Source of the DNA: Thermodesulfobacteriota bacterium
GTDB lineage: Bacteria > Desulfobacterota_D > UBA1144 > Nemesobacterales > UBA2774
Direction: 5' to 3'
Assembly (NCBI GenBank): GCA_963422265.1
Contig: OY729416.1
Coordinates: forward strand, 1,248,001 to 1,312,000
Length of the DNA: 64,000 nucleotides
The position numbers and the translations under genes were made by a program. The notes under the pieces were generated by a model that saw only the letters and a list, made by a program, of their open reading frames with translations, had not been told where the DNA came from and searched no databases. The first letter of the stretch is position 1. The number at the start of each line of letters is the position of its first letter. Of this stretch, positions 29,136 through 59,565 are shown one piece after another.

Positions 29136-29957
29136 ATGAGTTTTACAAGAAGAGTAGCAGCGTTATCCGTTTTATTCCTAATTTGTGCGTTTTCCATAGG
29201 AAACAGTAATACTTCAAAGGCGCAGGAGCTTCCGGGTCCCCAACTCGTAACTAATGCATGGATGTTTATAGCAGCTTATAAAGCTGACCCTAAAATTCTA
29301 AAATCTATGCTTCCCAAGGGGCTTGAGCCTAACCCCGCAGGGCACGTCGTTATAAATATGTACACCGTCCCCAATGGTCTTGAGACTTCCGGATTCGGAC
29401 CTTACACACTTACTTATCTGACCGTAGAGCTAGCCGGACAGGATTCATACGTAATGAACTCCGACATAACCTATCCGGGTAGATACTTCGTTTTCTATTT
29501 CAATAGCTCGCCCGTGATGAGGGAATTTACAAAGAAAGCAGGGATTCCGGTAAACGAGAATACTAACGTTCTGACTACGACAACAGTCAAAGAGGGCAAG
29601 CTCACCGCGACCTTAACCGTTGATGGGAAGCCCTTTATAGTATCTACCGCTGACGTTGGAAGCGAGCTCGGAAACTTTAGCGGCGGCCACCTAAACTACT
29701 TCGGACTTATTAATTACAAGAAGGAGGGTAAGTCCGTGCACAAGGTTGTTAAGTATCCTATTCCCTTTAACGGTGGAACTGTGGAGACCAAAAACGCCAA
29801 AATAAAGATCGCTGCCCCAGAAGGTCATAAGTTAAATAAACTTAAGCCAATCGCCGATCCAACTTGGGCGGTTTGGATGAAGGGAAGCTTCGTATATCCC
29901 CAATACCAGATTATAAATAAACACATAAGAAAGGGTTGTAGCAAAAAGACAAGATAG
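29136..29957 (+). CDS. Exported acetoacetate-decarboxylase-like fold protein
   Basis: Signal peptide; YKADPKILKSMLPKGLEP...FGPY..TYLTVE...PGRY resembles ADC family; AGGAGG RBS; lacks PKK motif. Confidence 0.55.
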   Translation: MSFTRRVAALSVLFLICAFSIGNSNTSKAQELPGPQLVTNAWMFIAAYKADPKILKSMLPKGLEPNPAGHVVINMYTVPNGLETSGFGPYTLTYLTVELAGQDSYVMNSDITYPGRYFVFYFNSSPVMREFTKKAGIPVNENTNVLTTTTVKEGKLTATLTVDGKPFIVSTADVGSELGNFSGGHLNYFGLINYKKEGKSVHKVVKYPIPFNGGTVETKNAKIKIAAPEGHKLNKLKPIADPTWAVWMKGSFVYPQYQIINKHIRKGCSKKTR

Positions 29958-48266: not shown

Positions 48267-50268
48267 TTTCACCAGCGTACTTCATCTCGAGTTCCCTCAA
48301 TTCTTTTATTTGATCTCGCTTTTTTGCGGCTATCTCATATTCTAGATTCTTAGCCGCCTCCTTCATTTCCTTGCTTAAGACATTTATTTCGCTAGGAATT
48401 TGTTCAGGAAGAACGTTTAAGAATTCCTCACTCTTAGGTTCTTTAGCAACTGTGTAGTAATCCGCCTCATATATACTTGATAGTATATCATTGACCGATT
48501 TGTTGACTCCAGTTGCAGTGATACCGTTTTCCCGATTGTATTTCTCCTGAATCTTCCTTCTTCTGTTTGTCTCCGAAATAGCACCCGACATCGAAGACGT
48601 GACCTTATCCGCATATAAAATCACTTGTCCATCTACATTCCTCGCAGTTCTACCAAACATCTGTATAAGGGAGGTCTCAGAGCGGAGATACCCCTCTTTG
48701 TCAGCGTCAAGTATGGCAACAAGCGATACCTCAGGTATGTCCAAACCCTCTCTTAATAAATTAATTCCCACAAGAACGTCAAATTTTCCAAGTCTCAAAT
48801 CCCTCAATATGGCTATCCTCTCAAGCGTATTAATGTCTGAGTGCAGGTAATGCACTTTTACTCCAAGCTCTTTGTAGTAAAAAGTTAAGTCTTCCGCCAT
48901 TCTTTTGGTAAGAGTGGTAACGAGAGACCTGCTTCCCTTCTCAGCTCTTCTCCTTATTTCTTCTAACAAGTCATCTACCTGATTGTTAACGGGTCTTATT
49001 TCAACCTTAGGATCGGCAAGCCCAGTGGGGCGTATAATTTGCTCTGTTATAGCACCTTCCGCTTTGTCTATTTCATAAGTACCGGGGGTCGCAGAAACAT
49101 ATATCGTCTGCGGCATTTTTTCTTCAAACTCAGAGAAGTTAAGGGGCCTATTATCTAAGGCTGAAGGCAGCCTGAAACCATGCTCCACTAGATTCATCTT
49201 CCTACTCCTGTCCCCCCCATACATTGCCCTCAACTGCGGAATCATCTGGTGACTCTCGTCAATTATCATTAAAAAATCTTTGGGAAAGTAATCAAGTAAA
49301 GTCCATGGGGGCTGCCCAGCTAATCTTCCAGAAATATGCCTTGAATAATTTTCAATACCTGGACAAAAACCCATATTTCTAAGAAGCTCTAGGTCATAAT
49401 TTGTCTTTTCTTCAAGTCTTTGTCTCTCCACCAGCATTTTCCGCGCTTCAAGGTATTTGAGCCTTTCCGCAAGCTCTTTTTCTATGTTCTCAATTGCCCT
49501 TTCATGCCTATATTTAGGGGCTGCGTAGTGAGAACCAGGATATATCGCCGCTTTTGCAAGAGGCCTTAAAGTCTTCCCCCTAACTGGATCTATTTCTCTT
49601 AGTGAATCTACTTGATTCCCAAAAAACTCTATTCTTAGAGCAGTCTTATCATAGTGAGATGGAAAAACATCCACGATATTTCCCTTCACACGAAAACTGT
49701 TCCTATGCAGATCAACCCCTACTCTTTCATATTGAATTTCCGCAAGCTTGTCCACCAACTCATCTCTATCAAGCTCCATACCATTCTTAACTACCGTGAG
49801 AAGGCTATAATAGTGCATAGGAGCACCAATCCCATATATACATGATACGCTAGCCACTATTATTACACCCCTTCCTTCAAAGAGCGACGTGGTAGAAGCA
49901 TGGCGCAATCTATCTATATGCTCATTAACCTGAGCGTCTTTTTCTATGTAGGTATCAGTTGACGGTATATAGGCTTCAGGCTGATAGTAATCATAATAGC
50001 TCACAAAATATCTAACTGCATTTTGCGGGAACAGATCTTTTAATTCTCCATAGAGCTGTGCTGCTAAGGTCTTATTATGGGCGATAATTAGGGTGGGTCG
50101 CTCTAAAATTGCAATTACGTTCGCAACTGTGAACGTCTTGCCACTACCAGTAACTCCGAGAAGTACTTGATGCTTGTCACCTCGGAGGACGCCCTCGGTA
50201 AGCTCTTTGATTGCGTCTGGCTGATCACCAGTTGGGTAAAACTCAGAATGTAGCTTAAAGATGTCCAC
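48244..50268 (-). CDS. uvrB: Excinuclease ABC subunit B
   Basis: [40 protein letters not shown]; 23-nt convergent overlap with uvrC. Confidence 0.98.
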
Positions 50269-50437
50269 TATGTAAAGATGGATTCATAACCAGAGATGGG
50301 AATCACCCCCATTACACAGGTAGATGAAAAGCATATTTGCACATGTTGTAAGTGAAGCATAGATTACAGAACTCCAACTCCATGCATTTAGAATGACGGT
50401 TTTCACCTTTTAACGTTATCTATCTCTCACCAGCAAC

Positions 50438-50977
50438 CTACTGATACTGTAGGTGAAGCTCAGGAACCCTTTCCTCTATCCTCTTTTCTTTATCTCTTTC
50501 CTCACCCTCCAATAATGCCATATCCTCGGGCACCCCAATTATTCGCCGCAAGGATTTTAACTCTTGTTTTGTCCGCTTACGGCTTTGCTTCATCTTTTTG
50601 CTTCTAACACGCAACTCCCGCAATATATCTGACATGCTCTCCCGGTCACCCTCACTTACGTAACTAATCCGACCCCGTCGGGACATCATATCTCGGACAA
50701 ATCTATACTTATCATACTCCTCATCCGGTATAAAGTTATCTAAAAATCTATAAGCCTCCTCTATTATCTCACGTTCCCCTATATAGTCTTCGTGAAGCAA
50801 GTATATACCCATTGCGTGGCGTATTACCCCCACCGAATAAGGCAACATAGATTCTGGTAATGCCCACGGAAGTATGTTAAGCGCTCGCGCTCCTTTTCCA
50901 CGTTTAATCAACTCTAATACTTCCCCATACTTACTCAGCACTTCCCCAGGATGTAGCCCTTCTTGTTTCTGTTTCAT
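50438..50977 (-). CDS. Hypothetical protein (helical, coiled-coil C-terminus)
   Basis: 179-aa ORF with purine-rich RBS region and own predicted promoter; no family recognised. Confidence 0.65.
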   Translation of the reverse strand: MKQKQEGLHPGEVLSKYGEVLELIKRGKGARALNILPWALPESMLPYSVGVIRHAMGIYLLHEDYIGEREIIEEAYRFLDNFIPDEEYDKYRFVRDMMSRRGRISYVSEGDRESMSDILRELRVRSKKMKQSRKRTKQELKSLRRIIGVPEDMALLEGEERDKEKRIEERVPELHLQYQ

Positions 50978-51023
50978 TCTGTTACTTCCCTCTATCCTTT
51001 TTGCACTGTCTTCTTATACCACA

Positions 51024-51053
51024 ATTATATGACATAGAATGACGATATGTCTA
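51024..51053 (-). promoter_or_regulatory. Promoter with overlapping palindrome
   Basis: TAGACA-N18-TATAAT; inverted repeat GACATA-N9-TATGTC at 51031-51051. Confidence 0.5.
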
Positions 51054-51138
51054 TATAGTGTGGTGTGATATGAACTCACTACACCTTATACCTATTCTTC
51101 TCCATAATACCCATTCTTCTCCATAACCCCTACTACAT

Positions 51139-51179
51139 AAAAAAAGCAGGAGCCCCTTATATCACAAAGAGACCCCTGC
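51139..51179 (-). terminator. Intrinsic terminator after ADC-like pair
   Basis: GCAGGGGTCTCTT-loop-AAGGGGCTCCTGC-T7; 13-bp stem with three G-U pairs. Confidence 0.85.
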
Positions 51180-51222
51180 CACTTTACTTATATTAATCGC
51201 CTGCTCTCCTAAATACTACAAC

Positions 51223-52194
51223 CTACCCCTGTGAATACTGTGGCAACAAGAACCTATGGCGCATCGTATACTTAAACGGCGTAGAATACAATATCTGACC
51301 CAAATCATCATCACCACGCTCTACCGTCTTACTCCATATCGTTAACGCAGGTGGTATTATCAAATTAAACGTGAAACTTATCAATCCCACTACCTCAGTC
51401 GCAGGTATCTGACCACCCATAAAATCAAATGGAGTCCCTGACATATACCACGAACGTATATCTCCACCCGTAGCCGTCCGGATACTCTCAGGATTTAACT
51501 GAAAACGATGCCCTGTCCCAAAACCAGGTGGTAAGTCTGATGGCAAATACGTTACCTCATGGATACTGTTACTTACATCAGGCCGCGTCGTTATCCTGTA
51601 ATTCATTCGACCCCAATCCGTCTTACCATAAAACGTCGGCCGCGTCGATAACGGCTTGTCAGAATACCGCCCATTAGCCGTGTGTAGTATATATCCCCTA
51701 CGCTCCATCAAATGATTAAAATAATTGTTGTTCGTCCCATGCTCAAAACCCGCTATATATGCAGCCTTCTTTGGAAATCCAAACGGCTCCTTACCCGCAA
51801 ATATAGGAGAATCATTAGACAAATACATATATGGATAATATCCAGCCTTGTATATCTGCCCATCTCCTGAATCTACCGTAGCTGAAAACGTTACTCCCAT
51901 CTCCATATACGGACCCAACATCGTGTTACGATGTATCACATACCAAAACTCTATTACATCATCCTGCACCTCTATCGGCTCAGGAACTACCGCCTTCATA
52001 CTGCTTATGTCCGCTCGTACTACATAAGCCATCCAACGACTCTCTGTATACGTCAACGGTATTATGTCATAGTCAAATACAGGATCCGCCACACCTTGAG
52101 ATATGATGTGAATCCTATCCCTATCTCGAGGCAAAGGTGGTACCTCCCCCTCTGCCAACCATGGATAGCTATATTCATTCGCTTGTAATCCCAT
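51223..52194 (-). CDS. Acetoacetate decarboxylase-like superfamily protein (paralogue B)
   Basis: VPEPIEV, MLGPYMEMGV, YYPYMYL, AGKEPFGFPKK (Schiff-base Lys motif); AGGAGG RBS. Confidence 0.82.
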   Translation of the reverse strand: MGLQANEYSYPWLAEGEVPPLPRDRDRIHIISQGVADPVFDYDIIPLTYTESRWMAYVVRADISSMKAVVPEPIEVQDDVIEFWYVIHRNTMLGPYMEMGVTFSATVDSGDGQIYKAGYYPYMYLSNDSPIFAGKEPFGFPKKAAYIAGFEHGTNNNYFNHLMERRGYILHTANGRYSDKPLSTRPTFYGKTDWGRMNYRITTRPDVSNSIHEVTYLPSDLPPGFGTGHRFQLNPESIRTATGGDIRSWYMSGTPFDFMGGQIPATEVVGLISFTFNLIIPPALTIWSKTVERGDDDLGQILYSTPFKYTMRHRFLLPQYSQG

Positions 52195-52248
52195 TGCTTT
52201 TAACCTCCTAATTTCGTTTTTGTTTCTCTCCTCTAAAACTACTCACCC

Positions 52249-53220
52249 CTATGACCCCTGACTGATTGGAAACTGCTGACGTAATCCATACTTATATGGC
52301 GTCGCATATCCACGATAACTCGCAGGACGCTCATATGTCTCCGTCCATAATACATTCGCAGGAGGTATGATTAAATCAAATACAAACGATATCAAACCCG
52401 TTACCTCCTGTACCTTTAGCTCTGCTCCCATATTGTCAAATGGCGTCGCCTGCATAAACCAGTTTATCGCATCTCCAGACGCCGTCCGCGTGTGCTCAGG
52501 CTTGATCTGAAAACGATGCCCCTTTACGTTAAATATCGCAGGTAACTCCGATGGCAAATACGTTAACTGCCACTCTGAACTAGATACGTCCGGACGCGTT
52601 ATTACCTTCATGTTAAACTTGCCCCAGTCCACCTTACCATAAAAATGTGGCGGCGTTACTTGCTTGTCGTCAAACTGACCCGTCGCACTGTGCATCAAAT
52701 ACCCATTCCGAGACATAGCAAATCCAAAGAAATCCGTCCCCTTCTCTCCACCGTGTACCGTGCAACGTATATATGACATCTTCTTCGGAAATCCTAATAC
52801 TCGCCCCGCATCTACAGGCGCATCGCCCGTCAAATACATATACGGATAATATCCAGCCTTGTACACATTACCACGTGGATCCTTATACGTCGCCGATATC
52901 GTTACTCCAAACTCCAAATATGGACCCAACATCGTGTTCTTATGATCCACATACCAAAACTCTACTAAATCAGCATTCTCCCCATCCCATACCTCTAATG
53001 GCGGATTCGGACATAAACGCTGACGCGTACCCTCATCCACCCTTACTACAAACGCCGACCAACGACTATCTGTATATGTCAGAGGAAGAACGTCTATATC
53101 CCACAACGGATCCGATGGATTCGCTATGATCCATGACTTTATGTCACGCTCTATTGGAGGAGGTGGAACCTCCTTCGTGAGTTCCCAATACTTCGTAGGA
53201 ACGTTAAGATGACTTGGCAT
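52249..53220 (-). CDS. Acetoacetate decarboxylase-like superfamily protein (paralogue A)
   Basis: PPLEV, MLGPYLEFGV, YYPYMYL, AGRVLGFPKK; AAGGAGG RBS. Confidence 0.82.
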   Translation of the reverse strand: MPSHLNVPTKYWELTKEVPPPPIERDIKSWIIANPSDPLWDIDVLPLTYTDSRWSAFVVRVDEGTRQRLCPNPPLEVWDGENADLVEFWYVDHKNTMLGPYLEFGVTISATYKDPRGNVYKAGYYPYMYLTGDAPVDAGRVLGFPKKMSYIRCTVHGGEKGTDFFGFAMSRNGYLMHSATGQFDDKQVTPPHFYGKVDWGKFNMKVITRPDVSSSEWQLTYLPSELPAIFNVKGHRFQIKPEHTRTASGDAINWFMQATPFDNMGAELKVQEVTGLISFVFDLIIPPANVLWTETYERPASYRGYATPYKYGLRQQFPISQGS

Positions 53221-53404
53221 AGTCTTAATACCTCCTTACTTAAATAGTTTTTTGACCAGATTACCAACCCTTCTATATCATCTACATCTCTATATCATCT
53301 AATACCACTCTATACGATAAACTATAATACAATAACACTAATTATTATACAATCTAATTGCTCCTACTTAATCCTACCTATCTAACACCTACCTAATAAT
53401 ACCA

Positions 53405-53434
53405 CTTATAACAAATCCCATCACTCCTTGTCAA
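53405..53434 (-). promoter_or_regulatory. Promoter for ADC-like pair
   Basis: TTGACA-N15-TGT-TATAAG, followed by ~180-nt C-poor leader. Confidence 0.55.
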
Positions 53435-53534
53435 GAACTATTTGTTAAATTACAGAGAATAGCTGACGATAGCCAGAAGCTGAACATTAACGAGTGAAAT
53501 TATGAAAAAACAACAAACCTAAAACTAATAACAA

Positions 53535-54686
53535 CTATTTACCTAAGATGCTAACAACACAAGTAATGCCATCCATGGCTGGTTGCGCTCCACCCATTGT
53601 TTCTATTATCCCTACTTTAGCCCCCTCCTGCTGACGTTCACCAGCTTCACCCCTCAACTGCCATACTATCTCCGCCGTCTGCAGAAGCCCTGTCGCCCCT
53701 ACTGGGTGACCTCGAGATAGAAGCCCTCCACCTGGATTAACTGCTACTCCCCCCCCGTTTACCCAAGTACTTCTATCCTCTATTAGCTTACCACCTTCTC
53801 CCTTCTCGCAAAATCCTAGAGCTTCATACACCATCATCTCTGCTATAGAAAACGCATCGTGTATTTCCGCTACGTCCATATCCTCAGGACCTAGCCCTGC
53901 TTGCTCATACGCCATTCTTGACGTCCGCATCACGTTCTCTGAAGGATCGCAAGTGAGACCCTTTGGACTTGAGTACTTCCCTGATTGAGCTACACAACCC
54001 AACACCTTGATTGGTTCCTTCGTAGCTAGCTTATCCACTAACTTCTCTGAGCATAGTACCGCTGACGCCGAAGCATCACCTACAGGACAACACATGTTGC
54101 GCGTTAGAGGATCTGCTATCATCGGCGAGTTTAGCACATCTTCTATCGTAACTTCTTTCCGATATTGGGCTAATGGATTCAAGGACGCATGATGACGGCT
54201 TTTTACCACTACTTTCGCCAACTGCTCCGGCGTAACCCCGTATTCCGACATGTACCGCTTCGCCCGCATCGCATATAGACCAGGCATTCCCATTCCCAAC
54301 GACACCTCTATATCATCTTCTTCTAAAGGCAAAGGTCCACCCGATAGCACCCTGCTTAAATTCTCTATACCCAAAGCTAAAGCTATGTCATATTGACCAA
54401 AAGCTATTGTTCTCCATGCCTCCCAAAAAGAAAGAGTGCCACTTCCGCATGCCCCCTCAACGTTTATTGTCGGCTGACCAACCAACCCTATCTCTTTAAG
54501 AGTCCTTTGACCTACTCCCATCCCCTGATATACGTGTCCACAAAACGCTATCTCTATCTTCCTAGGATGAATACCTGCATCCTGTATCGCCGCCCATGCT
54601 GACTCGCGTCCTAAAACATGCGCAGGCTTATCAGGAAATCTCCCACAAGCAGTAGTTCCTACCCCTATGATATATACATCTTGCAT
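53535..54686 (-). CDS. SCP2-type thiolase family protein (catalytic Cys present)
   Basis: NVEGACGSG, AEIHDAF, GGLLSRGHPVGATG, QLRGEAGERQ. Confidence 0.9.
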   Translation of the reverse strand: MQDVYIIGVGTTACGRFPDKPAHVLGRESAWAAIQDAGIHPRKIEIAFCGHVYQGMGVGQRTLKEIGLVGQPTINVEGACGSGTLSFWEAWRTIAFGQYDIALALGIENLSRVLSGGPLPLEEDDIEVSLGMGMPGLYAMRAKRYMSEYGVTPEQLAKVVVKSRHHASLNPLAQYRKEVTIEDVLNSPMIADPLTRNMCCPVGDASASAVLCSEKLVDKLATKEPIKVLGCVAQSGKYSSPKGLTCDPSENVMRTSRMAYEQAGLGPEDMDVAEIHDAFSIAEMMVYEALGFCEKGEGGKLIEDRSTWVNGGGVAVNPGGGLLSRGHPVGATGLLQTAEIVWQLRGEAGERQQEGAKVGIIETMGGAQPAMDGITCVVSILGK

Positions 54687-54706
54687 TTGTAGAAATCCCT
54701 CCTGTT

Positions 54707-54771
54707 AAAAAAAAAGGGGGGAAGGGGAGGTGGCGAGGTTTATCCTTCTCATGCCACTTCCCTATCCCACC
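54707..54771 (-). terminator. Intrinsic terminator after AmiS/UreI gene
   Basis: GGGAAGTGGC..GAG / CTC.GCCACCTCCC long imperfect stem followed by T9; RBS of next gene lies just downstream. Confidence 0.75.
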
Positions 54772-54795
54772 AATACTCTTATCCACACTTATACT

Positions 54796-55338
54796 CTACC
54801 CACCAGCACTAAGAGCCGTTATCGGACCCCACGTGCCCGTCAATAACAACATACCAGGCAACATTAACGTCAACACCGACTCTATCAAAAATAACCACGC
54901 TACCGTCGGTCCCAATGCCTTCCCCAAAGAAAATACCAAAAATACCAAAAATACTAACAATGCCCATGACCAACAAAATAAAGCATAATACATCATACCA
55001 GGAATCGCTCCCTCCAATCCATAAAAATGAAATCCATACCAAACAAACACTACCGTAGCAAATAAACAATACCAACCCAAACCCTTCGCATCATGACCAT
55101 GTATGAATATCCCCGCCACCATCAAATATATCAACGCAAATACCGATACCAATGCCGTCGCCGCCGTTAAATCCAACTCATGCAACTTCCACGCCGCTAT
55201 CAATATCAATATCGCTACGCCTAAGTTTAATACCCCTACCTCCTTCGCACCCGTCTTCCCCAATACCGTCATACCATTACAAAAAAATACAAATCCTACC
55301 AACAACAATACATAACCCAACAACATATCTATTCCCAT
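54796..55338 (-). CDS. AmiS/UreI-family channel
   Basis: Six TM helices; LLLVGFVFFCNG..LGK..AKEVGVLN, FALIYL, DAKGLGWYCLF, WSWALL, LMLPGMLLL. Confidence 0.85.
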   Translation of the reverse strand: MGIDMLLGYVLLLVGFVFFCNGMTVLGKTGAKEVGVLNLGVAILILIAAWKLHELDLTAATALVSVFALIYLMVAGIFIHGHDAKGLGWYCLFATVVFVWYGFHFYGLEGAIPGMMYYALFCWSWALLVFLVFLVFSLGKALGPTVAWLFLIESVLTLMLPGMLLLTGTWGPITALSAGG

Positions 55339-55416
55339 CTTCCTCCTTACCTCCTTATAATATGAGTTTTCTTACCTCTTTCTTTTCTTCTTCTTTTCTC
55401 CCCTACCCCCTCTACT

Positions 55417-55446
55417 CTTTTAACACACTTCACTACCCCATGTCAA
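55417..55446 (-). promoter_or_regulatory. Internal promoter for AmiS/UreI gene
   Basis: TTGACA-N15-TGT-TAAAAG; doubled SD AAGGAGGTAAGGAGG downstream. Confidence 0.5.
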
Positions 55447-55471
55447 GATACTTTTTACCTCACCCTCCAAT

Positions 55472-55927
55472 TTACCCCTCACCACGACGCCTTACCAGTA
55501 TCACCCACTTCCCAACCTGTACCACCTCTCCACCCTGATTATATACCTTTACCTCAAATATCAAAAATCCCATCCCTCCTCGCTTATGCTCACGCTTCTC
55601 CAATAACTCACGCCTCACATGAACTGTGTCCCCTAACTTCACCGCCCCTGAAAACCGCCAATCCTCCAATCCCATAAACGCCACTGTCCCCAAACGCGGC
55701 ATCGTAAACCATAAACCCGATGCTATAGATAATACACACAAACCATGCGCTACACGCCCCTTAAACACCGTACCACGCGCAAACTCCTCATCCACATGCA
55801 TATCGTTAAAATCCCCAGATAAACCAGCAAAACCCACTACGTCTGCCTCGGTCACCGTCCGACCACTGCTCTCATGTACCTCCCCCACCTCTATATCCTC
55901 ATATAACAACCGCACTGCTTCACCCAT
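55472..55927 (-). CDS. MaoC-family (R)-enoyl-CoA hydratase/dehydratase
   Basis: YEDIEVG, GRTVTEADV..FAGLSGDFNDMH (D-x4-H), GRVAHG, NQ.GEVV. Confidence 0.9.
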   Translation of the reverse strand: MGEAVRLLYEDIEVGEVHESSGRTVTEADVVGFAGLSGDFNDMHVDEEFARGTVFKGRVAHGLCVLSIASGLWFTMPRLGTVAFMGLEDWRFSGAVKLGDTVHVRRELLEKREHKRGGMGFLIFEVKVYNQGGEVVQVGKWVILVRRRGEG

Positions 55928-56366
55928 CCCTATTTACCCCCTCCTTCTTTACAGGCTTGAACTTCGGTAACGTTACCTCATCCGTTACGTCATCAAACAC
56001 TACCTCCACCTCCATACCTATATAAACATCTCCAGCCTCTACTCCCACCACGTTCGTCATTATCTTTACACCTTCCCCCAGCTCCACTAACGCAACCACA
56101 TACGGCGGCTCGCCCTTATACGCCTTCGTCGGACCCATGTGGTGCACCGCATACGTCCACACCTTACCTAACCCCCGAGAACGCACCCACTCTATCTCTT
56201 TACTCATTTCTTCCCCAGGACTATACGCACGCGGATAAAAAAAATACTCCCCACTTACCTTACTCCTTGGTATCAATAACTCATGCCCCTTACATCCCTC
56301 CCAATACCGCCGCGTCTCCGGACGAAAATCCGGCAACGGCTTCCCATATCCTCTCGCCTCACTCAT
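55920..56366 (-). CDS. DUF35 Zn-ribbon/OB-fold protein (thiolase partner)
   Basis: KPLP, YWEG, G.GKVWTY, PPYVVALVELGEG, IGMEVEVVF, LPKFKP; overlaps MaoC start. Confidence 0.9.
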   Translation of the reverse strand: MSEARGYGKPLPDFRPETRRYWEGCKGHELLIPRSKVSGEYFFYPRAYSPGEEMSKEIEWVRSRGLGKVWTYAVHHMGPTKAYKGEPPYVVALVELGEGVKIMTNVVGVEAGDVYIGMEVEVVFDDVTDEVTLPKFKPVKKEGVNRDG

Positions 56367-56385
56367 CGCTTGTCTCTCCCTCCTC

Positions 56386-57588
56386 TTATGTTAATGCCTG
56401 ATTCCCTAATACTACCGTGCTGTGCGCAGACACTATACCACCATTCCCATGAACTAACGCTACCTCGGAACCCTCTACCTGCCTATCCCCACAATCACCT
56501 CGCAACTGCAACACCGCCTCCACTACATGGTGCATCGCTCCCAAATGTGCCTGTGATAACAAACCCCCATGCGTGTTCACAGGTAAATCCTTACCTATCT
56601 CCATCCGCCCCTCCAAAGAAAACGCACCCCCCTCCCACTTAGGCACAAAACCCAACCCCTCTAACTCTAACAATACCGTTATCGTAAAACAATCATACAA
56701 ATACGCTATATCCACGTCACCCACACCTATACCTGCCGTCTCAAACGCCCTACCCCCAGACCTTCCTATCGCCTCATATATCTGATCCAAACCATCAAGA
56801 CTCGTCAAATACTGATGTGAATACCCCTGCCCCATACCCCATAAATACGCTAGCTTATTCTCTATCCCCAGCTCCCGCGCCTTATCCTCCGTCGTTACTA
56901 TAAACGCCGCTCCACCATCTGATATTATAGAACAATCATACTTCGTCAACGGCTCCGCTATCACCCTAGAACTCAACACTTCCTCTATGCTCAACGGCTC
57001 CTTATTCATCGCATTCTCTTTCAACCCCGCATGCTTACGCATCGTTACTGCTACAGAAGCTAAATGCTCCCGACTACATCCACTCTCATACAAATACCGC
57101 TGTGCCGCTAACGCATATCCACCAGGCGTCGTTAATCCATAAGGATACTCAAACTCACCATGACACATCTCGCGTATCAAAGCCACCATACCTGAAGACG
57201 ATATACCAGATAACGTGTTATCTCCGCGCACACATAATACTACCTCCGCCTGACCCGTTGCTATTGCCATCGCCGCCTCCGCTACCATCCACACCGCCGT
57301 CGCACCCCCTACTGCTACCGATGAAAAAAAACGAGGCCGCATACCAAAATAATCTGCAAACGTCGTGCAGTGCATAAACGTATGCTCCACCAATGAAAAC
57401 GCCGTTACTAGTCCATCCACTTCCCCCTTCTTTATCCCTGCATCCTCTATAGCCAACTTCGACGCCTGTGATAAAAAATCAAATGAACTACGACCCGATA
57501 TACGCCCCTGCTCCGTCTCACCAACTCCTGCTATTACTACACCCTTCCCCTTTAATACCTCCCGCGCTTCCTTCATATCGCTACCCAT
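56386..57588 (-). CDS. Ltp2-like thiolase-fold protein (probable aldolase; no catalytic Cys)
   Basis: VIAGVGET, VAVGGATA (no Cys), YDCSIISDGG, YLYDCFT, VNTHGGLLSQAH; start placed at ATG 57588 behind GGAGG. Confidence 0.88.
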   Translation of the reverse strand: MGSDMKEAREVLKGKGVVIAGVGETEQGRISGRSSFDFLSQASKLAIEDAGIKKGEVDGLVTAFSLVEHTFMHCTTFADYFGMRPRFFSSVAVGGATAVWMVAEAAMAIATGQAEVVLCVRGDNTLSGISSSGMVALIREMCHGEFEYPYGLTTPGGYALAAQRYLYESGCSREHLASVAVTMRKHAGLKENAMNKEPLSIEEVLSSRVIAEPLTKYDCSIISDGGAAFIVTTEDKARELGIENKLAYLWGMGQGYSHQYLTSLDGLDQIYEAIGRSGGRAFETAGIGVGDVDIAYLYDCFTITVLLELEGLGFVPKWEGGAFSLEGRMEIGKDLPVNTHGGLLSQAHLGAMHHVVEAVLQLRGDCGDRQVEGSEVALVHGNGGIVSAHSTVVLGNQALT

Positions 57589-57615
57589 ATCTCTATACCC
57601 CCCTCCTTCCTTATT

Positions 57616-57666
57616 CATAATTATCTGTCAATTAATTATGTTAATTGTCCCCACTAAGATTGTCAA
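57616..57666 (-). promoter_or_regulatory. Promoter and operator-like palindrome of thiolase-DUF35-MaoC operon
   Basis: TTGACA(57666-57661)-N17-TAACAT(57643-57638); CATAATTA-N9-TAATTATG at 57616-57640. Confidence 0.6.
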
Positions 57667-57671
57667 ATCCC

Positions 57672-58700
57672 CTAACTCCGCTGAGGTTCTATAATAATCT
57701 TAATAGATTCCTGAGCATCCTCTACCATGCGGAATCCTTTCTCAGTCTCCGAAAGCGGAAGCCTGTGTGTAATCATATTCTTCACGTTTACGCGCTTAGA
57801 CTTGATAAGCTCTAAAGCCAAAGTTAAGTCCGCAGGAGAAGCGGCATAAGAGCTCGTAACTGCAACCCCCGACCACCAGAAATTATTGAATGGAATTGAA
57901 ATCCTAACGTCGGGATCCGATGGGGCGAAGAATAACACTTTGCCCCCCGTCTCTACTAGTTTAAAAGATTGCTCTACCGCGGATCTAGCTCCCGTGCACA
58001 CCACTACGAAATCAACAAGCCTCCCGCTGTTTATCTCTTTTATACACGTAAATAAATCTTCCCTAGCATTGATTGAAAAATCGGCTCCAAATTCAGTCGC
58101 CGCGTCAAGCCTGTATTCACTGAGGTCAGTCGCTATGATACACCCCGCTCCCTGAGCACGCGCCAACTGTATATGGAGGAGTCCTGTAATTCCGCTCCCT
58201 ATCACAAGCACGCTGTCCGCCATTTGCAAATTTGCCAAACGCTGTCCACGAACGACGCAGCCAAGGGGCTCTACGAAAGAGCCTTCCTCATAGGAAACCC
58301 CATCGGGAAGCATAAGGACACCCCTATCTACGTTAATTGAAGGTATGCGAACGTACTCAGAGAAACCACCTGGATCAAAGCGAGTGGACTTTAAGGTAGG
58401 ACAAACTGAATGATTGCCTCTCAGGCATTGGTAGCAGGTATTGCAAGGAACGTGATGAGTGGCTACCACCCTGTCCCCCTCTTGGAACTTATGAACTTCC
58501 TCCCCCACCTCTACTACGTCACCCGCTATCTCATGCCCCAAGACCAAGGGAGCTTTCGGAAGGCGGTACCACTCCATTAAATCACTCCCACAAATCCCGC
58601 TAGCTCCAACGCGCACCAGTATTTCACGTGGACATATCTTAGGTTTAGGCACGTCCTCAAGACGGACGTCTCTATTGCTATAATACATGGCGGCGCGCAT
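57672..58700 (-). CDS. Zn-dependent medium-chain (sorbitol/threonine-type) dehydrogenase
   Basis: GICGSD, LGHE, CxxCxxC-x7-C, VEPLGC, GSGITG. Confidence 0.92.
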   Translation of the reverse strand: MRAAMYYSNRDVRLEDVPKPKICPREILVRVGASGICGSDLMEWYRLPKAPLVLGHEIAGDVVEVGEEVHKFQEGDRVVATHHVPCNTCYQCLRGNHSVCPTLKSTRFDPGGFSEYVRIPSINVDRGVLMLPDGVSYEEGSFVEPLGCVVRGQRLANLQMADSVLVIGSGITGLLHIQLARAQGAGCIIATDLSEYRLDAATEFGADFSINAREDLFTCIKEINSGRLVDFVVVCTGARSAVEQSFKLVETGGKVLFFAPSDPDVRISIPFNNFWWSGVAVTSSYAASPADLTLALELIKSKRVNVKNMITHRLPLSETEKGFRMVEDAQESIKIIIEPQRS

Positions 58701-58749
58701 GAAACCCTCCCTAAATGAAAGAAAGGTGAAAAGCTACGAGGCTTTAAGG

Positions 58750-59565
58750 TTAAGTGCTGGCTAGCCTCTTAGACTCCTCATCTCTTAAAGACAAAAAGAG
58801 GTCATGAGCCTGACTTGGTCTATTGCCTTCATGAACAATAGACCTAATCGCTCTTAATATGGCGACGGGATGCTCATTCTGCCATATATTTCTTCCCATG
58901 TCCACTCCCACAGCGCCTTGTTGAATAGCACCATAAGTCATTTCCAATACGTCCATCTCCGTATCTAATTTAGGTCCCCCGGCAATCACAATCGGTGCGG
59001 GACAACTGGTAGCTACCTTATCAAAGTTCTCACAATAGTAAGTCTTTACAATATGAGCACCAAGCTCGGCGCAAATCCGACAGCAAAGTGAAAGATACCT
59101 AGCGTCTCTTTTTTCGAGTTCCTTTCCAACGGCAGTTATTCCTAGAACAGGGATTCCATACTCCTCACCCTGATTAACCAACTCCGCAAGATTAATCAAC
59201 GTTTGCCTCTCATGAGCACTTCCGACAAAAACGGATATTCCAACGCCAGCTACGTTCAGCCTTATGGCATCCTTAAACGACGTCGTAAGCCCCTCGTCAG
59301 AAAGGTCATCCCCAATGATACTTGCTCCCCCAGATACTCTCAGAACCACGTTGGCGCATGACTCAGGGGATACCGAAGAACGGAGAATCCCACGCGTAAG
59401 CATTATCGTATCCGCATAAGGAATCAACGGCTCAATAGCTTTCTTAGGTTCTTCTAATTTATGGGTAGGTCCCAGAAAATACCCATGATCAAAGGCGAGC
59501 ATTACGGCTCTCCCGGTCTCGGGACTAATAATTCGCGCCATCCGATTTCTCATACCCCAGTCCAT
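58750..59565 (-). CDS. lsrF: LsrF-family class I aldolase-fold thiolase
   Basis: MDWGMRNRMARI, MLAFDHGYFLGP, AELGAHIVKTYYC, VIAGGPK, GVDMGRNIWQ. Confidence 0.85.
   Translation of the reverse strand: MDWGMRNRMARIISPETGRAVMLAFDHGYFLGPTHKLEEPKKAIEPLIPYADTIMLTRGILRSSVSPESCANVVLRVSGGASIIGDDLSDEGLTTSFKDAIRLNVAGVGISVFVGSAHERQTLINLAELVNQGEEYGIPVLGITAVGKELEKRDARYLSLCCRICAELGAHIVKTYYCENFDKVATSCPAPIVIAGGPKLDTEMDVLEMTYGAIQQGAVGVDMGRNIWQNEHPVAILRAIRSIVHEGNRPSQAHDLFLSLRDEESKRLAST

Follow-up and report, generated by a model that had tools for sequence, protein, structure and literature searches.

To our knowledge, most thiolase-fold aldolases with DUF35 partners that have so far been characterised belong to the chemistry of steroid side chains, toluene or phloroglucinol, and the acetoacetate decarboxylase (ADC) fold is known to us only from single-subunit enzymes. 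Here we analysed a 64,000-nucleotide stretch of DNA from a Thermodesulfobacteriota bacterium (hereafter the window), taken from a closed genome of 1.78 Mb with a completeness of 99.4% (bases 1248001-1312000), in which a thiolase-fold protein (thl410) and its DUF35 and MaoC neighbours lie in one cluster with a conventional thiolase (thl383), an AmiS/UreI-family channel gene and two ADC-family genes (ADC-A and ADC-B). Database entries for the closest kin of the window's proteins and loci carry the names Candidatus Dadabacteria or Thermodesulfobacteriota. The uncultured Dadabacteria live in the ocean, in sponges, in soils and in groundwater, and genomes are the only source of what is known about their physiology. 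We propose, tentatively and with somewhat more doubt than confidence, that the Dadabacteria share in this locus the core of a catabolic route for short-chain carbon, made of two linked modules; its reactions, the way in which flux runs and how the modules are coupled are what we infer below.

Two described systems resemble the first of these modules. The Scd/Shy/Sal/Sad genes for bile-acid side chains in Proteobacteria, including Comamonas testosteroni Sal (CtSal), encode successive steps by an acyl-CoA dehydrogenase, a MaoC hydratase, a DUF35-bound aldolase and an aldehyde dehydrogenase (Rolfe et al. 2025, PMC12329534). According to the same paper, CtSal has Gly at the position of the thiolase nucleophile and a YDCY motif with catalytic Tyr302 and Cys304, trypanosomal SLP has the motif YDCF and SCP2 thiolases HDCF, whereas catalysis in Ltp2 depends on Tyr294 of YDHF and on Tyr344; the characterised Sal enzyme releases an aldehyde from a secondary alcohol, and Ltp2 a ketone from a tertiary one (PMC12329534). 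The second system is ChsH1-ChsH2-Ltp2 of Actinobacteria (Thermomonospora curvata Ltp2, 6ok1), whose thiolase-fold enzyme likewise has no nucleophilic Cys and is partnered by a DUF35 protein, with a MaoC hydratase upstream. For the other module, the reference points are acetoacetate decarboxylase (EC 4.1.1.4; C. acetobutylicum 3bh2 and Chromobacterium violaceum 3bgt), a beta-cone enzyme with a Lys-Lys dyad, and the ADC-fold aldolase-dehydratases and their relatives, Sbi00515 (4zbo, 6eej) and MppR (4jm3), which share the fold and Schiff-base lysine and, to judge by the titles of their entries, show that the scaffold is capable of pyruvate aldol chemistry in place of decarboxylation. For the channel they are Helicobacter UreI and Pseudomonas AmiS.

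As far as the literature was searched, no described pathway has this combination of genes, in agreement with the initial annotation of the window, which was made by a model from the letters and their open reading frames (ORFs). We found nothing joining Dadabacteria with acetoacetate decarboxylase, and nothing relevant on acetoacetate decarboxylase with DUF35 (with or without thiolase and MaoC) or on the 4U4E thiolase. Acetone is mentioned in a Dadabacteria paper solely as acetone carboxylase, and none of six relevant terms occurs in the marine Dadabacteria paper of Graham and Tully.

A putative Sal/SLP-type aldolase with a DUF35 and a MaoC neighbour

The gene families named in the initial annotation are all recovered by Pfam, and so is the hydratase, DUF35 and thiolase-fold-aldolase architecture of three adjacent genes. 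The further description of thl410 as a Cys-less Ltp2-type enzyme stands only in part. Among PDB entries it is closest to 4u4e (253.6 bits), followed by Ltp2 (6ok1, 206.9 bits), and the Cys is indeed gone at the nucleophile position, where 'avGGAta' of thl410 aligns with 'eaaCAsg' of thiolase 7yvy and with 'GACGSG' of thl383. The YDCF cysteine is kept within the motif LYDCFT, which is also found in the orthologue from a relative with a ~1-Mb genome (locus L182), and the position of Ltp2 Tyr344 holds a His ('AH' vs 'AY' of 6ok1). Because thl410 combines Gly at the nucleophile position with YDCF and has His in place of Tyr344, it is by its motifs of the Sal/SLP type and not of the Ltp2 type; neither YDHF nor Tyr344 of the ChsH1-ChsH2-Ltp2 system is kept. 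The likeness to CtSal extends to the Gly and to the Tyr-Asp-Cys-aromatic motif, which is YDCF here and YDCY in CtSal (PMC12329534).

The arrangement differs from Scd/Shy/Sal/Sad in several respects. MaoC and DUF35 are separate small proteins here and a single fused Shy there, the DUF35 protein of the window lacks the Cys4 (or Cys3His) zinc ribbon, with only one Cys before residue 60 of its 148 aa, there are no steroid-ring genes nearby, and the genes sit in 1-2 Mb genomes with an ADC-like pair and a channel as partners. The substrate would surely not be a steroid. From the adjacency of the genes, the DUF35 protein is presumed to be the scaffold of thl410. Among the NCBIfam models MaoC comes closest to the PaaZ hydratase domain, but its 88.6 bits fall far short of the cut-off. 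As for thl383, it retains both the nucleophile Cys (GACGSG) and the GHP His (RGHPVGATG), with the HDCF cysteine replaced (HDAF), and it scores 288 bits against the archaeal thiolase model and 307 bits against BbsB, both under the curated cut-offs of 600 and 750. In relatives with 1-Mb genomes thl383 is followed by a DUF35 gene of its own.

We compared the locus with the best 80 of 239 genome matches (hereafter the Dadabacteria loci) and, for other lineages, with the best 80 of 310 metagenome matches. A short-chain acyl-CoA dehydrogenase lies inside the thl410 operon in 29 of the 80 Dadabacteria loci, and an aldehyde dehydrogenase is nearby in 19. The best NCBIfam match of the operon's acyl-CoA dehydrogenase is AcrC (413.6 bits, below the cut-off of 640), and its orthologue in the present genome (77% identity) stands alone at 604001-605146, with a nitroreductase-family gene in its vicinity. 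Since the relatives' cluster holds an acyl-CoA dehydrogenase together with an aldehyde dehydrogenase, cleavage seems a better description of the aldolase step than condensation with a ketone.

The initial annotation had offered, as a speculative example, condensation of a ketone with acetyl-CoA. In its fullest form, a small neutral ketone such as acetone would enter through the channel, the aldolase would condense it with acetyl-CoA to a tertiary 3-hydroxyacyl-CoA, MaoC would dehydrate this, and enzymes of leucine degradation would carboxylate and split the product. Such a pathway would fit the tight linkage of the channel (49 of 80 loci) and the biotin genes that adjoin the cluster in the window; aldolases are reversible, the genome holds one full-length acyl-CoA carboxyltransferase, and the very high expression predicted below would suit an unfavourable condensation. 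Yet the YDCF motif belongs to the aldehyde-releasing Sal/SLP type and not to the ketone-releasing type with YDHF and Tyr344, the dehydrogenases of the relatives fit cleavage, bioF and bioA queries match none of the 80 related loci, and the ADC pair is left without a role. The route from acetone over 3-methylcrotonyl-CoA to 3-hydroxy-3-methylglutaryl-CoA (HMG-CoA) also calls for a lyase, and no gene of HMG-CoA-lyase size was found in the genome, the two lyase-like matches being LeuA-like ORFs of 518 and 539 aa. We therefore regard ketone condensation as improbable. The remaining inventory of the genome includes one strong 3-hydroxyacyl-CoA dehydrogenase and three crotonase-family genes. There is no HMG-CoA synthase gene in the Dadabacteria cluster; a weak KAS-III-like ORF occurs solely in an anaerobe-type metagenome locus (L088).

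Two ADC-family subunits predicted to bind each other

ADC-B and ADC-A score 71.7 and 73.5 bits against a Pfam gathering threshold of 29.8, and both A-type and B-type orthologues were found across many phyla. The motif GFPKK occurs without change in 19 of 19 A- and B-type sequences, opposite YPKK of 3bh2 in the alignment; in 3bh2 we take K115 (Schiff base), K116, E76, E61 and R29 to be the active-site residues. The lysine expected to form the Schiff base is K142 in ADC-A and K146 in ADC-B. E98, K142 and K143 of ADC-A align with E76, K115 and K116 of 3bh2, and the Glu is invariant in both subunits. The AlphaFold model of ADC-A has a pLDDT of 71, with low confidence in the N-terminal ~45 and C-terminal ~25 residues. 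It matches the true ADCs 3bgt and 3bh2 with target-normalised TM-scores of 0.72-0.75 (Foldseek probability 1.00), compared with 0.63-0.68 for MppR (4jm3) and Sbi00515 (4zbo, 6eej). Profile searches likewise put the pair nearer the true ADCs (E-value 7.5e-15) than the aldolase-dehydratases (0.0093).

ADC-A and ADC-B were among the proteins that the initial annotation proposed for complex modelling, and ADC-B is predicted to bind ADC-A. The predicted complex scores 0.79 (runs of 0.82, 0.79 and 0.79), compared with 0.00 for the best of three controls, and passes a mark reached by 116 of 157 solved complexes and by 2 of 215 mismatched pairs. The partner has a pLDDT of at least 81, and at least 59% of the contacts are common to the runs. 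The predicted interface includes the terminal arms and the loops of the Lys-Lys dyad.

These comparisons bear on a rival account of the cluster, classical acetone formation, in which thl383 would make acetoacetyl-CoA, acetoacetate would be freed from it and decarboxylated by ADC-B/A as a true acetoacetate decarboxylase, and acetone would leave through the channel. The profile and fold nearest those of 3bh2 and 3bgt, the preserved Lys-Lys dyad and E76 equivalent, and a Cys-bearing thiolase directly upstream would all fit. However, the pair departs from acetoacetate decarboxylase in being built of two paralogous 323-aa subunits with N- and C-terminal arms instead of one chain of ~245 aa, in having Trp at the E61 position and an Arg moved by one, and in scoring far under the curated ADC cut-off (NF002614, 54 and 29.3 bits vs 150). 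Nor was a family-I or family-III CoA-transferase that could free acetoacetate found in the 99.4%-complete genome. Moreover, the second cluster copy has no thl383, nor do most of the related loci (14 of 80 have it), and thl410, DUF35 and MaoC would have no role. Acetone formation is thus, in our judgement, quite unlikely.

A fifth ADC-family gene lies elsewhere in the window (29136-29957, plus strand; 273 aa; PF06314, 40.5 bits), beside leuA. It has ordinary codon usage (C at third codon positions, C3, 0.26), and on these grounds we place it in a different subfamily from the twin pair.

A channel without urease or amidase partners

The AmiS/UreI-family protein matches its Pfam family over nearly its full length (residues 7-168 of 180, profile positions 2-165 of 166; 95.3 bits vs a cut-off of 25), as Helicobacter UreI and Pseudomonas AmiS do. 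Family membership could suggest that the cell takes up its nitrogen through this channel in the form of urea or a short amide, independently of the enzymes around it, and characterised members conduct urea or accompany amidases. Unlike those proteins, the channel here has no urease or aliphatic amidase partner and is linked to the ADC pair (49 of 80 loci). The 99.4%-complete genome gave no match to the urease alpha subunit (PF00449) or to formamidase/acetamidase (PF03069), and its single amidase-signature match, a 496-aa protein encoded outside the cluster, is one that we take to be GatA. The genome has only two AmiS genes, each inside one of the two copies of the cluster, and the channel gene has the most extreme codon bias of all ORFs. 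Uptake of urea or amides is accordingly an account to which we give very little credence.

Linkage of the two modules

The genes of the cluster co-occur in other genomes. ADC-B adjoins ADC-A in 70 of the 80 Dadabacteria loci, which hold AmiS in 49 cases, DUF35 in 41, thl410 in 38, MaoC in 35 and thl383 in 14. The commonest order (15 loci) is divergent, with the acyl-CoA dehydrogenase, thl410, DUF35 and MaoC on one strand and ADC-B and ADC-A on the other; the co-linear order of the window is found in 7 loci, and a convergent order also occurs, so that the two modules stay within 10 kb of each other through at least three gene orders. The fullest set was seen in genomes of ~1 Mb from three genera, where thl383, a second DUF35 gene (DUF35b), a nitroreductase-like gene, Sir2, ADC-B, ADC-A, an aldehyde dehydrogenase and a PNPOx-like gene are convergent with the acyl-CoA dehydrogenase, thl410, DUF35, MaoC and AmiS. 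The cluster is kept even in the family with ~1-Mb genomes, in 15 of 19 of them. Across 120 genomes of the phylum, ADC-A was found in 89 (77 of 94 high-quality genomes) and thl410 in 81; 75 genomes have both, 14 only ADC-A, 6 only thl410 and 25 neither, counts in which related genomes are not independent.

Several further genes recur beside the pair. In 19 of 80 genome loci the gene directly upstream of ADC-B encodes a Sir2/CobB-type protein deacylase (e.g. L012, 7988-8761), and in the 1-Mb relatives it is accompanied there by a nitroreductase-like flavoprotein (L182, 7557-8327 and 6696-7511; L183; L186); nitroreductase-family genes are also found near the ADC pair in L088 and L162. A speculative possibility is that an active-site lysine, once acylated, is repaired. 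A conserved 126-aa ORF of no family stands just upstream of ADC-B in 23 of the 80 Dadabacteria loci (e.g. L007, 8397-8777) and is absent from the window, whose 314-nt gap at 53221-53534 contains neither a Sir2 nor a nitroreductase gene.

Outside the Dadabacteria the picture is different. The order ADC-B then ADC-A is kept in the 80 metagenome loci wherever the contig is long enough, and by this distribution the two genes are an ancient pair. Its neighbours in other lineages are TRAP (DctQM), EamA and MFS transporters and F420 genes, with a TRAP binding protein adjoining ADC-B in 35 of the 80 loci, 36 of which are at least 8 kb long. On a group of high-GC contigs (L089-L161) the pair lies between a TRAP transporter and cofC, cofD, cofE and CofH-like radical-SAM genes; because these TRAP/F420 loci are closely alike, we count them as one observation, which may be a matter of synteny only or may connect the pair with a deazaflavin-dependent step. 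In 79 of the 80 metagenome loci the pair has no CoA genes, and we conclude that it is an independent module, contrary to the initial view of the genes as one pathway locus. The exception in these loci is a single thiolase match of the thl383 type, in L088. That locus and L087 carry an anaerobe-type operon in which the ADC pair is joined by an acyl-CoA dehydrogenase, a weak KAS-III-like ORF, a Cys-bearing thiolase, a weak DUF35 match, an electron-transfer flavoprotein (ETF), an Fe-S oxidoreductase, two DUF2148 proteins and a sigma-54 activator.

These data raise the question of whether the modules are functionally related at all. The ADC pair could act alone on a transported solute, its nearness to the aldolase reflecting high expression and co-duplication. 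The lack of CoA genes and AmiS within 10 kb of the pair in other lineages, at the thresholds used and barring the L088 thiolase, the adjoining TRAP binding proteins and the lone pairs within the Dadabacteria (13 of 80 loci with the pair only, 13 with only AmiS beside it, and L184) point in this direction. Against it, the linkage has outlasted rearrangement into at least three gene orders, genomes with both modules (75 of 120) outnumber those with only one (14 and 6; an excess overstated by kinship among the genomes), and the L087/L088 operon again joins the ADC pair with an acyl-CoA dehydrogenase, thiolase, weak DUF35 match, ETF and Fe-S oxidoreductase. We consider unrelated modules unlikely, though a serious contender.

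Codon usage and duplication

The initial annotation had noted a compositional signature shared by the cluster genes, and this proved to be sharply bounded. In the eight genes C3 is 0.02-0.09 and the corresponding value for G (G3) is 0.33-0.52, compared with 0.15-0.26 and 0.20-0.27 in the flanking genes. Cluster genes of both copies account for the 8 lowest C3 values among the 1452 ORFs of the genome (at least 100 aa), the AmiS gene (0.02) having the lowest of all, and they are followed by two EF-Tu genes, two GroEL genes, ribosomal protein S10 and a ribosomal-protein region. The EF-Tu genes (genome positions 802233-803432 and 922683-923882) are identical in composition, with C-poor and G-rich third positions, and the GroEL genes (1573204-1574868 and 1435069-1436715) have the same bias. 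Because the signature is common to EF-Tu, GroEL and ribosomal genes, it marks high expression and not foreign DNA, and its presence in tuf, groEL and rpsJ rules out a foreign island. Judged by this bias, expression of the cluster is probably very high.

Six of the eight genes are present twice in the genome, as two near-identical segments (Table 1). The second copy has a different order and lacks thl383 and the 179-aa gene. Two full-length ADC-A matches were found in 25 genomes of the phylum, with equal bit scores in 22 of the 25; scores that are equal within a genome and differ between genomes indicate concerted evolution. In several closed relatives (G053:C1:1217435-1218409, G049:C1:1855241-1856092, G068, G065 and G061) the second copy of thl410 is truncated or has an in-frame stop. 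The ADC pair of these same relatives is intact in both copies.

A candidate route

In the route that we propose, the first module would begin with the short-chain acyl-CoA dehydrogenase, encoded elsewhere in this genome and in the operon of relatives, which would yield an enoyl-CoA. The MaoC hydratase would add water to give a 3-hydroxyacyl-CoA, and thl410, held by the DUF35 protein, would cleave this by a retro-aldol reaction into acetyl-CoA and a free small aldehyde. By analogy with the Scd/Shy/Sal/Sad steps on bile acids, this would be an aldolytic rather than a thiolytic beta-oxidation, with thl383 as an ordinary thiolase for a 3-oxoacyl-CoA branch. Given that no family-I or family-III CoA-transferase was found in the genome, an aldehyde released by the aldolase and taken up by an aldehyde dehydrogenase is a plausible CoA-transferase-free way to a free acid. 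In the second module, the ADC-B/ADC-A heteromer would form a lysine Schiff base with a small carbonyl compound that bears a carboxyl group (a beta-oxo acid being the likeliest) and release CO2 and a small neutral carbonyl; in relatives an aldehyde dehydrogenase would come next. The AmiS/UreI-type channel may pass this small neutral carbonyl across the membrane in either direction. One example would be a glutaryl-type acyl-CoA converted to the 3-hydroxyacyl-CoA, then to acetyl-CoA and 3-oxopropanoate, then to acetaldehyde and CO2, and finally to acetate. This scheme fits the gene order, and we allow it at most a slim chance of being the right one.

Several points weigh against the two-module route. 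Fourteen genomes have ADC-A without thl410 and six have the reverse. The 80 metagenome loci from other lineages gave, at the thresholds used, no tblastn match to thl410, DUF35, MaoC or AmiS within 10 kb of the ADC pair, and the pair's neighbours there suggest that the two modules may not be in one pathway. E61 of 3bh2 aligns with an invariant Trp (W84), R29 aligns with S52 with an invariant R53 one position later, and the NF002614 scores lie well under the cut-off. Homo-oligomers of ADC have already been solved, and likeness to them may be part of the reason that the predicted complex passed. In this genome the acyl-CoA dehydrogenase is 0.7 Mb away among uninformative neighbours, and there is no aldehyde dehydrogenase in the window's cluster. 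The substrates of the Sal and Ltp2 enzymes characterised to date are bulky steroids, so that the analogy is uninformative on substrate size. Finally, small ketones and aldehydes cross membranes fairly easily, which leaves the need for a channel unexplained.

Organisation of the locus

As first described, the cluster consists of eight co-oriented ORFs, all on the minus strand at 50438-57618, and strong Shine-Dalgarno (SD) sequences are the rule, with GGAGG ahead of 6 of 8 starts. The features are collected in Table 1. The DUF35 gene overlaps the start of MaoC by 8 nt and is separated from the end of thl410 by 20 nt. No SD site precedes the first ATG of thl410 (57618), while GAAGGAGGAGGA stands ahead of Met11 (ATG at 57588); for this reason the true start is probably Met11, the annotated one being 10 codons too early. 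Orthologues of thl410 have 403 aa.

Table 1. Coordinates of the cluster genes, signals and duplicated segments in the window.
Feature	Position	Strand	Details
Promoter-like site TTGACA-17-TAACAT, upstream of thl410 gene	57638..57666	-	Outside duplicated segment (ends 57622)
thl410, thiolase-fold protein, Sal/SLP aldolase type by motifs, 410 aa	56386..57618	-	Thiolase_C_1 161.5 bits, Thiolase_N 37.1 bits (Pfam)
DUF35 OB-fold protein, 148 aa, presumed thl410 scaffold	55920..56366	-	PF01796, 70.8 bits, residues 60-125
MaoC-type (R)-specific enoyl-CoA hydratase, 151 aa	55472..55927	-	PF01575, 96.6 bits
AmiS/UreI-family six-helix channel protein, 180 aa	54796..55338	-	PF02293, 95.3 bits
thl383, conventional SCP2/archaeal-type thiolase, 383 aa	53535..54686	-	Pfam 136 bits, NCBIfam
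C-poor leader and promoter-like site of ADC operon, within duplicated segment	53221..53452	-	
ADC-B, long-form ADC-family subunit, 323 aa	52249..53220	-	PF06314, 71.7 bits
ADC-A, long-form ADC-family subunit, 323 aa	51223..52194	-	PF06314, 73.5 bits
Intrinsic-terminator-like hairpin, 14 pairs and T-run, directly after ADC-A, closing ADC operon	51145..51180	-	
Promoter-like site TAGACA-18-TATAAT, before 179-aa gene	51053-51024	-	
179-aa protein of no known family, frequent neighbour outside operon	50438..50977	-	No Pfam/NCBIfam match
Duplicated segment 1, AmiS to thl410	54708..57622	.	Genome 890773-893695, 99.5% identity
Duplicated segment 2, ADC-B, ADC-A, leader and terminator	51022..53452	.	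Genome 893753-896181, 99.9% identity

The promoters and terminators that the initial annotation assigned to the cluster received mixed support. Three sites are well placed, but overall such sites are no commoner than in shuffled sequences (20 promoter-like sites vs 16.7 +/- 3.8; 4 terminator-like sites vs 4.8 +/- 2.5). In the ADC leader, TTGACA at 53432 is followed after 18 nt by TATAAG, as found by eye. An Rfam E-value scan of 50000-59000 returned only a chance match to a miRNA model (E = 0.36), and the ADC leader was unmatched. The 179-aa gene, counted at first as part of the unit, is better seen as a separate one since it lies behind the ADC-A terminator with a promoter-like site of its own. 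It is present in 15 of the 80 related loci, on the opposite strand to ADC-A in 14 of these 15.

The cluster is flanked upstream by a Zn-dehydrogenase, an LsrF-like aldolase, bioF, bioA and bioB, and downstream by uvrB and uvrC. The threonine-dehydrogenase-like Zn-dehydrogenase and the LsrF-like aldolase (NF006081, 399.9 bits, above the cut-off of 297) lie at 57672-59565 (minus strand), where they separate the cluster from the biotin genes, and have ordinary codon usage. A link of the cluster to these two genes was ruled out, as they follow ADC-A in 1 of the 80 related loci, and so was a link to bioF/bioA (0 of 80).

Significance

New in this analysis are the placing of thl410 with the Sal type, the ranking of codon usage over the whole genome, the full supercluster of the 1-Mb genomes, the predicted binding of ADC-A and ADC-B and the genes looked for and not found in the genome. 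The cluster also broadens the picture of two enzyme groups, the DUF35-partnered aldolases and the ADC fold. The locus bears marks of a central role: it is kept in ~1-Mb genomes, often occurs in two near-identical copies and has a codon bias beyond that of EF-Tu. Identification of its substrate could reveal a new small-carbonyl route and two new carbon-carbon-bond biocatalysts.

A bolder reading, and in our estimate a long shot, is that the channel, the ADC pair and the aldolase are the main carbon and energy pathway of the Dadabacteria, serving a small volatile carbonyl, such as acetaldehyde, acetone or formaldehyde, or a beta-oxo-acid precursor. Small volatile carbonyls are found everywhere in seawater, soil and sponges. 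On this reading the near-identical twin copies and a codon bias beyond that of EF-Tu would have a parallel in other specialists, whose key enzymes, such as ammonia and methane monooxygenase, are encoded by operons in several copies, and the phylum would live largely on, or turn over, such volatiles by a route that no cultured organism is known to use.

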